Assembly: GCF_024502345.1 (NCBI RefSeq)
Contig: NZ_JALDNN010000001.1
DNA from: Escherichia coli
GTDB lineage: Bacteria > Pseudomonadota > Gammaproteobacteria > Enterobacterales > Enterobacteriaceae
DNA length: 64,000 nt
Strand: one strand, 5' to 3'
Below the pieces are notes generated by a model. The model was not told the origin of the DNA and ran no database searches. It saw nothing but the letters and a program-made list of their open reading frames with translations. Of this stretch, positions 20,744-54,599 are shown piece after piece. Both the position numbers and the translations under genes were made by a program. How positions within the stretch are numbered: position 1 is the first letter of the stretch; each line of letters opens with the position of its first letter.

Positions 20744-20917
20744 GTAGGCCGGATAAGGCGTTCACGCCGCATCCGGCGACAGGAGCCAAATGCCGGATGC
20801 AACGCTGGCGCGTTTTATCCGGCCTACAATGAGTTCAACATACTGATTTGTATGGTTTTGTAGGCCGGATAAGGCGTTCAAGCCGCATCCGGCGACAGGA
20901 ACTAAATGCCGGATGCG
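20744..20917. repeat. BIME: cluster of about 4 REP units in alternating orientation
   Basis: Repeated GCCGGATAAGGCGTTCACGCCGCATCCGGC and its reverse complement. Confidence 0.85.
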
Positions 20918-25837: not shown

Positions 25838-26964
<1,127 letters not shown>

Positions 26965-27166
26965 TTAATTCGTAAAACGTGCTACCGATCACATTAAGAA
27001 ATCAGCGCTTATTTTTTCGCTCCCCGGCATTACGCAATGCGCAACGAACTCAGGCATACATCAAGCATAGAGAGGGATTGCAGTTTGCAGCAATCCCTCT
27101 TTGTAGACCTTTAATCCGCTGACCATAGGCGCTAACATAGCGCCTCATTATTTTGCGGGTGATGAT

Positions 27167-28117
27167 ATGCGTGTGTTACTGGCACCGATGGAGGGAGTGC
27201 TTGACTCTCTGGTGCGTGAATTGCTGACCGAAGTTAACGACTACGATCTGTGCATCACCGAGTTTGTCCGCGTGGTGGATCAACTGCTGCCGGTAAAAGT
27301 CTTTCATCGCATTTGCCCTGAGCTACAAAACGCCAGCCGGACACCATCTGGTACGCTGGTGCGCGTGCAGTTGTTAGGTCAGTTCCCACAATGGCTGGCA
27401 GAGAACGCCGCCCGTGCGGTGGAGTTAGGTTCCTGGGGCGTGGATCTCAATTGCGGCTGCCCGTCGACAACGGTTAACGGTAGCGGCGGCGGGGCGACGT
27501 TACTCAAAGATCCTGAACTCATCTACCAGGGGGCAAAAGCGATGCGTGAAGCTGTACCGGCGCATTTGCCTGTCAGCGTGAAAGTGCGTCTGGGCTGGGA
27601 CAGCGGTGAGAAGAAATTTGAAATCGCCGATGCGGTTCAACAGGCTGGCGCTACGGAGCTGGTGGTGCATGGGCGGACGAAAGAGCAGGGTTACCGCGCG
27701 GAGCATATTGACTGGCAGGCGATTGGCGAGATTCGCCAGCGGCTGAATATTCCGGTGATTGCCAACGGTGAAATCTGGGACTGGCAGAGCGCGCAACAAT
27801 GCATGGCGATCAGCGGCTGCGACGCAGTGATGATTGGTCGCGGGGCGCTCAATATTCCCAACCTGAGCCGGGTGGTAAAATATAACGAACCGCGAATGCC
27901 GTGGCCGGAGGTGGTTGCTTTGCTGCAAAAATATACCCGTCTGGAAAAGCAGGGCGATACCGGGTTATATCACGTAGCGCGGATTAAACAGTGGTTGAGT
28001 TATTTGCGTAAAGAATACGATGAAGCAACAGAATTATTTCAGCATGTTCGGGTGTTGAATAATTCCCATGATATTGCAAGGGCTATTCAGGCAATTGATA
28101 TCGATAAGCTGCGATAA
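27167..28117 (+). CDS. dusC: tRNA-dihydrouridine synthase C, 316 aa
   Basis: ORF track; Dus TIM-barrel with catalytic Cys in LNCGCP. Confidence 0.9.
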
Positions 28118-28138: not shown

Positions 28139-28504
28139 GAGACAATGAATCGCTTATTCAGCTTCATCATCTTGTTGCGCTCCTTTCATGAACTAAGCCA
28201 CATATTGCCACTGGCGCAAGGTGCGCGCAGAGGGAGGACAATCGCCTCCTCCCCCTGCACCCCCGGGCTCTGGCGAACAAAATCGCCGCTGCGCGGTACC
28301 TTCAGCTTATCCCCTTCGGCTACCGGGTCGGGCGCGAGGTAACGTCCTTGTAAGACGCGCCCTCAGCCCACATCCATGTGGGCTGCCCCGGCCTTCGGGG
28401 AACGCTTCAGCGATTTTGACGCCACCAACACCGGAGCTGTTTGCAAATCAAGTACAAAAAATATCTAGTTCCTGACCTGACAACTTATATGCCATATCTG
28501 ATTT

Positions 28505-28588
28505 TTAAAATATCATCTTAAATACGCCAGTCACCACCAGTAGCCCAATCAGGAAAATAATCAATACAGCCCAGAGTATAATTTTCAT
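28505..28588 (-). CDS. yohP: 27-aa single-TM small membrane protein MKIILWAVLIIFLIGLLVVTGVFKMIF
   Basis: Not in ORF track (below length cutoff); ATG preceded by AAGGAA SD; peptide matches E. coli YohP as I recall it. Confidence 0.6.
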   Translation of the reverse strand: MKIILWAVLIIFLIGLLVVTGVFKMIF

Positions 28589-28736
28589 TGGCGTTCCTTT
28601 ATTTGTGAGTGCTGAATAAGTATAGGAAAAAACGAAGCCCTTCGCTGTCATTTATAAGTGATTAAGATAAATCGGAGAATATCATTCACTTAGTCTATAT
28701 TTTTCTGGGTATGTCGTTTTATTGCTACTGATGTAT

Positions 28737-28745
28737 TGCCACGCG
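28737..28745. repeat. Left copy of 9-bp target-site duplication TGCCACGCG flanking IS1
   Basis: Identical 9-mer directly abuts both IS1 ends. Confidence 0.9.
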
Positions 28746-28800
28746 GGTGATGCTGCCAACTTACTGATTTAGTGTATGATGGTGTTTTTGAGGTGCTCCA

Positions 28801-29076
28801 GTGGCTTCTGTTTCTATCAGCTGTCCCTCCTGTTCAGCTACTGACGGGGTGGTGCGTAACGGCAAAAGCACCGCCGGACATCAGCGCTATCTCTGCTCTC
28901 ACTGCCGTAAAACATGGCAACTGCAGTTCACTTACACCGCTTCTCAACCCGGTACGCACCAGAAAATCATTGATATGGCCATGAATGGCGTTGGATGCCG
29001 GGCAACCGCCCGCATTATGGGCGTTGGCCTCAACACGATTTTCCGCCATTTAAAAAACTCAGGCCGCAGTCGGTAA
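28801..29076 (+). CDS. insA: IS1 InsA (transposition inhibitor / N-terminal part of InsAB' transposase), 91 aa
   Basis: ORF track; zinc-finger CPSC...CSHC; inside IS1. Confidence 0.95.
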
Positions 29077-29498
29077 CCTCGCGCATACAGCCGGGCAGTG
29101 ACGTCATCGTCTGCGCGGAAATGGACGAACAGTGGGGATACGTCGGGGCTAAATCGCGCCAGCGCTGGCTGTTTTACGCGTATGACAGGCTCCGGAAGAC
29201 GGTTGTTGCGCACGTATTCGGTGAACGCACTATGGCGACGCTGGGGCGTCTTATGAGCCTGCTGTCACCCTTTGACGTGGTGATATGGATGACGGATGGC
29301 TGGCCGCTGTATGAATCCCGCCTGAAGGGAAAGCTGCACGTAATCAGCAAGCGATATACGCAGCGAATTGAGCGGCATAACCTGAATCTGAGGCAGCACC
29401 TGGCACGGCTGGGACGGAAGTCGCTGTCGTTCTCAAAATCGGTGGAGCTGCATGACAAAGTCATCGGGCATTATCTGAACATAAAACACTATCAATAA
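28995..29498 (+). CDS. insB: IS1 InsB reading frame (expressed as InsAB' by -1 frameshift at TTAAAAAAC near 29048-29056)
   Basis: ORF track frame overlapping insA 3' end in the -1 frame. Confidence 0.9.
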
Positions 29499-29513
29499 GT
29501 TGGAGTCATTACC

Positions 29514-29522
29514 TGCCACGCG
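29514..29522. repeat. Right copy of 9-bp target-site duplication TGCCACGCG
   Basis: See left copy. Confidence 0.9.
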
Positions 29523-29588
29523 AAACTAAAAAATATATCGCAACACACGGTAATCTCCGCGCACCGTTTCTTACCTGATTATTCCCCC

Positions 29589-31025
29589 ATGAATCGTGAT
29601 TCCTTTTATCCAGCCATCGCCTGTTTTCCGCTGTTACTGATGCTGGCCGGGTGTGCGCCTATGCATGAAACCCGCCAGGCGTTAAGCCAGCAAACGCCCG
29701 CTGCACAAGTTGACACCGCATTACCCACGGCGCTGAAAAATGGTTGGCCAGACAGCCAATGGTGGCTGGAGTATCACGATAATCAGCTCACTTCATTAAT
29801 TAACAATGCACTACAGAACGCACCGGATATGCAGGTGGCTGAACAGCGCATTCAGCTAGCTGAAGCCCAGGCGAAGGCAGTTGCCACTCAGGATGGTCCG
29901 CAGATCGACTTTTCGGCGGATATGGAGCGGCAAAAAATGTCGGCAGAAGGGCTAATGGGGCCGTTTGCTCTGAACGATCCGGCCGCAGGTACGACCGGTC
30001 CGTGGTACACCAACGGAACTTTTGGCTTAACGGCGGGCTGGCATCTCGATATCTGGGGAAAGAATCGGGCGGAGGTTACTGCCCGCCTGGGTACGGTTAA
30101 AGCACGGGCGGCGGAACGCGAGCAAACCCGCCAATTGCTGGCTGGCAGCGTAGCCCGCCTGTACTGGGAGTGGCAAACCCAGGCGGCGTTAAACACGGTC
30201 TTGCAGCAAATAGAAAAAGAGCAGAACACCATTATCGCGACCGATCGCCAGCTATATCAGAACGGGATTACTTCTTCAGTTGACGGTGTGGAAACCGATA
30301 TTAATGCCAGCAAAACCCGGCAGCAGCTCAACGATGTCGCGGGGAAAATGAAAATTATTGAGGCACGGTTAAGCGCACTTACAAATCACCAGACAAAGTC
30401 ATTGAAGCTTAAACCGGTCGCGTTGCCGAAAGTGGCAAGCCAGCTTCCTGATGAACTGGGGTACTCCTTACTGGCCCGGCGGGCAGATTTGCAGGCGGCG
30501 CACTGGTACGTTGAGTCATCGCTAAGCACCATTGATGCGGCAAAAGCGGCATTTTATCCTGACATCAACCTGATGGCCTTCCTGCAACAGGATGCGTTGC
30601 ACTTAAGCGATCTGTTCCGTCATTCCGCGCAGCAAATGGGCGTTACGGCAGGCCTGACGCTACCTATTTTCGATAGTGGTCGTCTTAACGCCAATCTCGA
30701 TATCGCAAAAGCCGAAAGCAACTTGTCTATCGCCAGCTACAACAAAGCGGTGGTTGAAGCGGTGAATGACGTGGCGCGGGCAGCCAGTCAGGTTCAGACA
30801 CTTGCGGAGAAAAACCAGCATCAGGCGCAAATTGAGCGCGATGCCTTGCGTGTGGTAGGTCTTGCGCAGGCGCGCTTTAACGCGGGCATCATTGCTGGTT
30901 CCCGCGTCAGCGAAGCCAGAATCCCCGCGCTGCGTGAGCGGGCCAATGGCCTGTTATTGCAAGGGCAGTGGCTGGATGCTTCCATTCAACTCACTGGTGC
31001 GTTGGGCGGGGGTTACAAACGCTGA
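29589..31025 (+). CDS. mdtQ: Outer-membrane efflux lipoprotein of the NodT/OprM (TolC-like) family, 478 aa, apparently intact
   Basis: ORF track; signal peptide with lipobox LLMLAGC; synteny. Confidence 0.8.
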   Translation: MNRDSFYPAIACFPLLLMLAGCAPMHETRQALSQQTPAAQVDTALPTALKNGWPDSQWWLEYHDNQLTSLINNALQNAPDMQVAEQRIQLAEAQAKAVATQDGPQIDFSADMERQKMSAEGLMGPFALNDPAAGTTGPWYTNGTFGLTAGWHLDIWGKNRAEVTARLGTVKARAAEREQTRQLLAGSVARLYWEWQTQAALNTVLQQIEKEQNTIIATDRQLYQNGITSSVDGVETDINASKTRQQLNDVAGKMKIIEARLSALTNHQTKSLKLKPVALPKVASQLPDELGYSLLARRADLQAAHWYVESSLSTIDAAKAAFYPDINLMAFLQQDALHLSDLFRHSAQQMGVTAGLTLPIFDSGRLNANLDIAKAESNLSIASYNKAVVEAVNDVARAASQVQTLAEKNQHQAQIERDALRVVGLAQARFNAGIIAGSRVSEARIPALRERANGLLLQGQWLDASIQLTGALGGGYKR

Positions 31026-33353: not shown

Positions 33354-33477
33354 TTCCTCACGATTCTCCTTTGACGATCGCACTTTTTGCTCGTTATGAT
33401 GGCGTCGCTAGCCTCAGTAAATCCTTACTCCGGCGGTGCGCAACCCGTGCGCGTGAACCACTATCTGAATGCTCATC

Positions 33478-42791: not shown

Positions 42792-43523
42792 TTAAATGCC
42801 GAGTGGGAAAATATCATAGCCTTGTTCTTGCCAACTGGTGAGTTGCTGTTGTTGGGCGGAGGTTCGATTTTCACCGCACCACACCAGCAATGTACGGCCT
42901 TCGAACAGTTCAGGGCGTAGTTGATTGAGCGAGTGGGCGAGGACATCAATGCGCCATCCTTGTTGACTGGCAATCCAGCCCTCCAGCCACAGACGGGTGG
43001 TATCGTGAATATTCCAGCCAACCACCAGCGCATCTTTACCCTGTTTTTTACGTGCCGAAGCCAGACAGATGGCGATGTAGTTGATCAGTACGCCGTCGAG
43101 GATCGCCAGCAGCGCCTGGAGAGTCGGTTGTTGGCACTGAAGCCGTCGACGCAGAGGAATAAACAAATGCGTGGTGAGCGTCTGGGCGGGGTAATCCTGA
43201 CCGCGCTCTTTGATCCACGTTCGCAGGCTATGCAGATTGCCGCTTTGCAAGTAAGTCAGTAATGTTTCTTGCTGATCGCGCCAGCCGTTCTGCACATCAA
43301 CATTTTCATTACTGAGCAGCATTTTAACTTTGCTGACCTGCACGCCGTTGTCGATCCAGCGTTTGATCTCGCGGATCCGGTCAATATCGGCATCGTTGAA
43401 CAGCCGATGACCGCCGTCTGTCCGTTGCGGTTTCAGCAATCCGTAACGCCTCTGCCACGCGCGTAACGTGACAGGGTTAATATCACAAAGCAACGCCACT
43501 TCACCAATTGTGTAAAGCGCCAT
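42792..43523 (-). CDS. mlrA: MerR-family transcriptional regulator (curli/csgD activator type), 243 aa
   Basis: ORF track; N-terminal MerR HTH (MALYTIGEVALLCDINPVTLRAWQRRYGL). Confidence 0.9.
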   Translation of the reverse strand: MALYTIGEVALLCDINPVTLRAWQRRYGLLKPQRTDGGHRLFNDADIDRIREIKRWIDNGVQVSKVKMLLSNENVDVQNGWRDQQETLLTYLQSGNLHSLRTWIKERGQDYPAQTLTTHLFIPLRRRLQCQQPTLQALLAILDGVLINYIAICLASARKKQGKDALVVGWNIHDTTRLWLEGWIASQQGWRIDVLAHSLNQLRPELFEGRTLLVWCGENRTSAQQQQLTSWQEQGYDIFPLGI

Positions 43524-53908: not shown

Positions 53909-53991
53909 AAAAAAACCTGCTGGTGAGGCAGGTTCTTTTATTTACTATTTTCAGGCCTAACACCACAGCCTGTGCAACATCGTGTTCCAAC
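53909..53991 (-). ncRNA. orzP: Predicted ~80-nt divergent small RNA (OrzO/OrzP-like antitoxin RNA), copy A
   Basis: Minus-strand promoter (-35 TTGCAA 54021-54026, 17-bp spacer, -10 TATAAT 53998-54003); minus-strand intrinsic terminator (stem ACCTGC/GCAGGT then U7) at 53909-53934; 5' region repeats leader sequence at 54138-54157. Confidence 0.5.
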
Positions 53992-54518: not shown

Positions 54519-54599
54519 AAAAAAACCTGCTGGTGAGGCAGGTTCTTTTATTTACTACAGTGACGCTAACTTGCTGATTGTGCAACATTTCGTACCAAC
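54519..54599 (-). ncRNA. orzO: Predicted ~80-nt divergent small RNA, copy B
   Basis: Minus-strand -10 TATAAT (54606-54611) and shared -35 TTGCAA (54629-54634); terminator hairpin plus U7 at 54519-54543; 18-nt complementarity (one G-U) to leader at 54749-54766. Confidence 0.5.

Follow-up and report, generated by a model that had tools for sequence, protein, structure and literature searches.

A recent IS1 insertion in the divergent yohP–mdtQ control region of Escherichia coli, an interval recurrently targeted by IS1

The 64-kb stretch of Escherichia coli DNA analyzed here (the window) carries a complete IS1 element between the divergent genes yohP and mdtQ, placed there by a simple, recent transposition in which a staggered cut duplicated 9 bp of the target. 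The yohP–mdtQ interval is an IS1 hotspot, hit far more often than two neighboring intergenic regions that served as controls. Among the sequences searched, only the insertion site is novel; the element is known and the event is routine. Taking all of the evidence together, we consider it quite likely that an ordinary IS1 has recently entered an AT-rich, dispensable target, with little effect on yohP, with expression of mdtQ reduced or unchanged, and with a near-neutral outcome overall.

Results

Anatomy of the IS1 element

The element is 768 bp long (28746–29513, plus strand), as established both by direct reading and by script, and its insA-to-insB direction points toward mdtQ. The left terminal repeat, IRL, reads GGTGATGCTGCCAACTTACTGAT (28746–28768, plus strand), and the right terminal repeat, IRR (29491–29513, plus strand), reads GGTAATGACTCCAACTTATTGAT when the right end is reverse-complemented; the two agree at 18 of 23 positions. 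In the outward direction, on the minus strand, IRL contains the −35-like hexamer TTGGCA, and the corresponding outward hexamer of IRR is merely TTGGAG. Inside IRL, the consensus scan finds a promoter-like CTGCCA-16-TATGAT (28753–28780, plus strand), which has the top position weight matrix (PWM) score of the region, 8.3, and whose position we take to be that of the known IS1 insA promoter.

The gene insA (28801–29076, plus strand) begins with GTG and encodes 91 aa that match the Pfam families Zn_ribbon_InsA and HTH_Tnp_IS1. InsA is the IS1 repressor, and the transposase InsAB′ is produced by a −1 frameshift at AAAAAAC. This programmed frameshift motif (A6C) is present at 29052–29058 on the plus strand, the fusion across it is uninterrupted, and the insB′ frame (−1) is open as far as 29498, giving an InsAB′ transposase of 232 aa (28801–29498, plus strand). 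The reconstructed protein scores 243.8 bits against the NCBIfam model NF033558, "IS1 family transposase" (cutoff 100), and matches the Pfam families PF03811, PF12759, and PF03400 (Zn_ribbon_InsA, HTH_Tnp_IS1, and DDE_Tnp_IS1), with the DDE_Tnp_IS1 match spanning positions 1–131 of 131. All of the IS1-family features that were tested are present, namely the length and repeats, the insA–insB′ frameshift, the transposase models, and a duplication of 8–9 bp. Coordinates and profile matches agree with the first-pass annotation of this DNA, which had described a complete 768-bp IS1 with intact repeats, insA, insB, and frameshift motif. A script search of the 64-kb window found no second copy of IS1, and the element is the sole insertion sequence in these 64 kb.

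Both ends of the element are flush with the 9-mer TGCCACGCG, the left copy of the target-site duplication lying at 28737–28745 and the right copy at 29514–29522. The perfect direct repeat that had been claimed earlier held up on re-inspection, the two 9-mers being identical by reading and by script; a 9-mer would match by chance at a given position with a probability of about 4^-9 (4e-6). The same 9-mer has one further occurrence in the window, at 43453. With seven of nine positions G or C, the duplicated sequence is G+C-rich and atypical among the targets mapped below; its surroundings are AT-rich.

Of the insertion sequences in E. coli, IS1 is the most active. The copy in the window is 99.87% identical, with one mismatch, to copies in four other strains (L010, L015, L017, and L021 in our numbering of loci), whose transposase is named "IS1-like element IS1B family" by PGAP, and E. 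coli copies with an IS1A or IS1B family annotation are 99.2–99.9% identical to it. A difference of one base from copies in four unrelated strains indicates that it represents the current, presumably active variant. IS1A/IS1B-type copies from E. coli and Shigella share the length of 768 bp, the terminal repeats, the A6C −1 frameshift, and the 9-bp duplication, and no structural difference separates them from the element described here. This IS1 is an ordinary, full-length copy that is probably still mobile, judging indirectly from the integrity of all its parts and from the one-base difference that separates it from copies at other recently occupied sites.

Empty site and age of the insertion

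Four public assemblies with an exactly identical MdtQ protein (L001–L004) show the unoccupied arrangement, in which yohP and mdtQ are spaced by 223 bp and TGCCACGCG is present as a single copy. The first-pass annotation had proposed a comparison with the empty site in related genomes, and L004 (GCA_054852445.1) supplies it: one copy of the 9-mer joins both flanks, the site is unoccupied, and an alignment to the window minus IS1 and one repeat copy has 1 mismatch and 0 gaps over 6,612 bp. So nearly isogenic an empty site, differing at 1 of 6,612 positions, indicates that the insertion is both real and recent.

The same IS1 junction, sought as a single-piece high-identity match, was not found in any of the 5,426 complete E. 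coli genomes, and exact-pattern scans returned 0 occurrences in GTDB species representatives and 0 in JGI metagenome contigs. The right-hand 24.5 kb of the window is collinear with the best-matching complete E. coli genome at 99.5% identity. The earlier reading of a simple, relatively recent transposition is thus sustained by the perfect duplication, the near-isogenic empty site, the absence of the junction elsewhere, and the existence of copies that differ by one base.

The neighboring genes and their divided control region

The gene mdtQ (29589–31025, plus strand, with its ATG at 29589) encodes an outer-membrane channel lipoprotein of 478 aa. It had been called intact and NodT-family, and both points are borne out: MdtQ matches its NCBIfam equivalog model over positions 1–478 of 478 (1024.5 bits) and the NodT subfamily model TIGR01845 with 275.7 bits (cutoff 210). 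Near its N terminus is the sequence LLMLAGC, which we read as a lipoprotein signal. In K-12, mdtQ is described as a pseudogene (PMC12719787; PMC11762307), and its promoter has had no experimental mapping (PMC11762307). The gene is full length in the window and in most of the genomes fetched; strain PO06101 (L009) has an internal stop.

The gene yohP (28505–28588, minus strand), which is divergent from mdtQ, encodes a small membrane protein of 27 aa, identified from the open reading frame listing and a match to NCBIfam NF011345 (67.3 bits). The native intergenic region between the two genes is 223 bp long and has 38% G+C, compared with 51% for the window. IS1 had been described as lying 3′ of yohP, and here the first-pass annotation needs correction: yohP is on the minus strand with its start at 28588, so IS1 lies 157 bp 5′ of it and hence within the shared divergent control region, on the promoter side of both genes. 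The distance to mdtQ, given earlier as about 75 bp, is exactly 75 bp (29514–29588, plus strand, by reading), and this is all of the native upstream DNA that is left attached to the gene. Everything beyond −75 is separated from it, in keeping with the earlier statement that IS1 cuts mdtQ off from its native upstream DNA.

Promoter scans at the occupied and empty sites

A simple weight matrix was used to score sigma-70-like sites in the sequence with IS1 and in the sequence without it, alongside a consensus scan. Consensus-scan hits in the region are no more numerous than in shuffled sequence, which makes the inference about expression a weak one. At the empty site, all plus-strand candidates that face mdtQ either span the insertion point, as do the native TTGCTA at 28722 and TTGCCA at 28736, or lie to its left. 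Neither the consensus scan nor the weight-matrix scan found a sigma-70-like site wholly within the retained 75 bp. After the insertion, the sole good plus-strand site is the insA promoter of IS1 itself, about 800 bp upstream of mdtQ.

At the right junction, the outward TTGGAG of IRR has no −10-like partner at 16–18 nt, where the flank offers AAACTA or AACTAA, and this hybrid, scanned by consensus only, has no candidate in the top PWM list. At the left junction, IRL and its flank would form TTGGCA-18-TACATC toward yohP, which is without the conserved final T of the −10 and has a low PWM score, 5.7. Neither junction holds a convincing predicted IS1/flank hybrid promoter. Between insB′ and mdtQ, no intrinsic terminator was found on the plus strand. 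The predicted fold of the retained 106-nt leader RNA is no more stable than that of shuffled sequence (z = −0.81), and the intergenic region has no Rfam match. A native short-leader promoter of mdtQ could lie within the retained 75 bp.

On the other side of the element, the minus strand at 28618–28626 reads CCTATACTT and contains a good sigma-S-type −10, CTATACT (28619–28625, minus strand), followed after about 24 nt by a ribosome-binding site (AAGGAA) and the yohP start codon. This putative −10 of yohP is intact and lies 121 bp from the IS1 end. A site of the sigma-S type fits the sigma-S dependence of YohP in Salmonella (PMC5437024) and the stationary-phase induction of YohP in E. coli, in which its overproduction is physiologically costly (PMC12719787).

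Outward −35 boxes in IS1 can form hybrid promoters (PMC8764528; PMC9330008), and elsewhere IS1 insertions have been followed by downstream expression that is up, down, or unchanged (PMC8764528). Given that no good hybrid promoter is predicted here and that only the insA promoter, about 800 bp away, faces mdtQ, silencing or no effect appears likelier than activation.

A recurrent IS1 target between yohP and mdtQ

A left-junction query of complete E. coli genomes returned 28 in which IS1 adjoins yohP in the same orientation, and a query with inverted IS1 returned 11 more, none of them at the position seen in the window. Events were mapped in 21 representative loci (L005–L025), in one further locus from the low end of the empty-site ranking (L032), and in the window. 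Together these yield 23 independent insertions of IS1, some in each orientation, between 28464 and 29598, which corresponds to about 360 bp of native DNA. Fifteen of these lie between the yohP and mdtQ start codons. Another four lie at the yohP stop codon or just beyond it, one interrupts the yohP start codon, two fall in codons 1–3 of mdtQ, and one abuts the mdtQ ATG in a locus from which yohP is deleted (L032). Most of the 23 have their own duplication of 8 or 9 bp, and the four that do not are joined either to deletions, which take out mdtQ–yohF, yohP, or the 5′ part of mdtQ, or to an inversion that reaches mglA.

The mapped elements comprise at least five IS1 sequence subtypes, 93–99.9% identical to the copy in the window, and these differences in subtype indicate that the events are independent. 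At four target positions two insertions occurred, their elements differing in subtype and lying in opposite orientations; the number of coincident pairs expected by chance is about 0.7 (Poisson P ~0.006). Orientations are not significantly biased, at 14 to 9 overall (P = 0.40) and 11 to 4 between the start codons (P = 0.12), and an orientation bias toward mdtQ was accordingly rejected as a sign of selection. Either yohP or mdtQ is destroyed in L012, L008, L021, L015, L025, and L032, so the region tolerates the loss of either gene.

Of 5,422 genomes searched with a 284-nt query representing the empty site, 5,363 match it unbroken and 57 have it divided between two places. Counted by genome and without correction for phylogeny, about 59 of 5,422 have a split or truncated intergenic region. 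IS1 accounts for at least 32 of these, and the one genome sampled among the roughly 27 others (L032) likewise carries IS1. Two divergent regions served as clean controls: dld–bglX (39% G+C) has 0 split and 2 truncated cases, and yohD–yohC has 0 of 5,425. Set against these 0–2 cases, the approximately 59 interrupted genomes of 5,422 mark the yohP–mdtQ interval as clearly insertion-prone. Our literature search found no published report of IS1 at yohP/mdtQ or of the locus as a hotspot for insertion sequences, and a yohP/mdtQ site is not listed in the ST131 IS1 site tables.

Three other candidate controls were set aside, preT–yeiS and bglX–osmF because of dispersed repeats and yohJ–dusC because about 500 genomes show an island polymorphism there. 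The yohJ–dusC intergenic region (26906–27189) is not contiguous in about 500 of 5,424 E. coli genomes, and in L018 the gene immediately upstream of dusC encodes a 3-hydroxybenzoate 6-monooxygenase. The discontinuity and this gene together point to a strain-variable island rather than to activity of insertion sequences.

Discussion

What the insertion is likely to have done

IS1 prefers AT-rich targets, as Zerbib and colleagues reportedly found in 1985 (cited in PMC9330008). Such a preference, acting in dispensable DNA, explains the combination of both orientations and gene-destroying events at yohP–mdtQ better than selection does. IS1 entered the 223-bp divergent control region, and we propose that the site was chosen through this preference for AT-rich, expendable DNA. 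That the interval is targeted recurrently weakens the case for anything special in the copy found in the window. The contrary reading is that the interval is a previously undescribed hotspot kept by selection, in which IS1 rewires or knocks out yohP, taken as a stationary-phase, membrane-depolarizing, dormancy-promoting small protein, and/or the orphan channel gene mdtQ, and that the window carries an adaptive allele; we think this doubtful.

The predicted consequences for the two genes differ. The native DNA still upstream of mdtQ amounts to 75 bp, and each promoter-like site facing the gene would have been lost, displaced, or split. Expression of mdtQ is most likely lower or the same as before, and any read-through from the self-repressed IS1 promoter would be weak. 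For yohP, the likely sigma-S core promoter is kept, and the gene is probably little affected. The insertion as a whole is probably neutral or nearly so.

Adaptive activation would predict instead that IS1 turns on a poorly expressed mdtQ by read-through, by a junction promoter, or by breaking H-NS-type silencing. At bgl, silencing of the H-NS type is broken by IS1 and IS5. The element is oriented toward mdtQ, the plus strand has no intrinsic terminator between insB′ and the gene, the upstream DNA is 38% G+C, and 11 of the 15 insertions between the start codons share the orientation seen in the window; elsewhere, IS1 activates acrEF, blaTEM, and afa (PMC9330008; PMC8764528). The orientation bias is not significant, however (P = 0.12), and the IRR hexamer is just TTGGAG, with no −10-like partner at 16–18 nt. 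Moreover, in other strains IS1 lies in the first codons of mdtQ or abuts its ATG, or mdtQ is deleted (L008, L021, L032, L015, and L025), a pattern that does not suggest selection for mdtQ function. The IS1 promoter is also weak and InsA-repressed, and IS1 is polar on transcription. We therefore regard activation of mdtQ as unlikely.

The insertion might alternatively have been kept for altering yohP, either by removing upstream regulatory DNA or by adding an outward IRL promoter. IS1 is 157 bp upstream, and the better of its outward −35 hexamers, the TTGGCA of IRL, faces this gene. YohP is stress-induced, depolarizes the membrane, and triggers the stringent response, its overproduction is costly (PMC12719787), and in L012, L006, L017, L025, L007, and L022 yohP or its putative −10 contains or adjoins an IS1. 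Against this, the putative sigma-S −10 is intact at 121 bp from the IS1 end, TTGGCA-18-TACATC lacks the final T of the −10 and scores low, and the displaced DNA contains no known regulator site, so that a role for altered yohP seems very unlikely. Misplacement of IS1 at yohP–mdtQ by the assembler would be suggested by the multicopy nature of IS1 and by a junction that is in no other public sequence searched, but exact ends together with a perfect 9-bp duplication that is single-copy in the empty site are the signature of transposition and not of a mis-join, and the flanks are otherwise collinear with L004. An assembly artifact is extremely unlikely.

Comparison with known IS1 targets

The insertion resembles the activating insertions at bgl (IS1/IS5), acrEF, blaTEM, and afa in that IS1 sits in AT-rich regulatory DNA in the same orientation as a transport-related gene. 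It differs from them in that, by sequence reading only, mdtQ has no properly spaced −10 for the outward −35, and in that the population pattern at yohP–mdtQ includes gene-destroying insertions. The hotspots upstream of flhDC and in the ST131 afa regulatory region are a parallel in architecture, with many independent insertions of insertion sequences in a few hundred base pairs of AT-rich divergent DNA. Insertion phenotypes have been measured at flhDC and afa, whereas none is known for yohP–mdtQ, and yohP–mdtQ is distinguished from both by insertions in both orientations and by gene-destroying events.

As a single event, this IS1 is of little weight, a fresh intergenic copy being routine in E. 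coli. It can nevertheless be used as a strain or lineage marker, and the IS1 allele offers a natural means of locating the mdtQ promoter. The interval of about 360 bp is in turn a natural test bed for IS1 target choice, and the pattern of insertions shows that many natural isolates can do without yohP or mdtQ.

Other features of the window

The repeat of about 270 bp between dusC and yohP (28157–28428) is a TRIP1c element (PMC10888264). It has one orientation in the window, L003, and L004 and the opposite orientation in L001, L002, L005, and L032, with about 88% identity to the inverted copies. TRIP1-mediated chromosomal rearrangements occur in about 2% of E. coli genomes (PMC10888264). On a larger scale, the region corresponding to 17000–41000 spans about 30.4 kb in many E. 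coli and 24 kb in the window and in strain MB46, so the window is without a strain-variable segment of about 6 kb within 17000–41000.

Several RNA motifs were also found. Two matches to the OrzO-P antitoxin RNA, at 53909–53984 (99.9 bits) and 54519–54592 (88.8 bits) on the minus strand, both lie within a 1.5-kb stretch that has no long open reading frame, and this stretch looks like a tandem zor–orz type I toxin–antitoxin locus. The nucleoid-associated, REP-derived RNA naRNA4 matches at 20747–20824 (plus strand, 85.8 bits) in the mglC–preA spacer, and a Peptidase-S11 cis-regulatory RNA motif (33393–33473, plus strand, 72.8 bits) lies directly upstream of pbpG.
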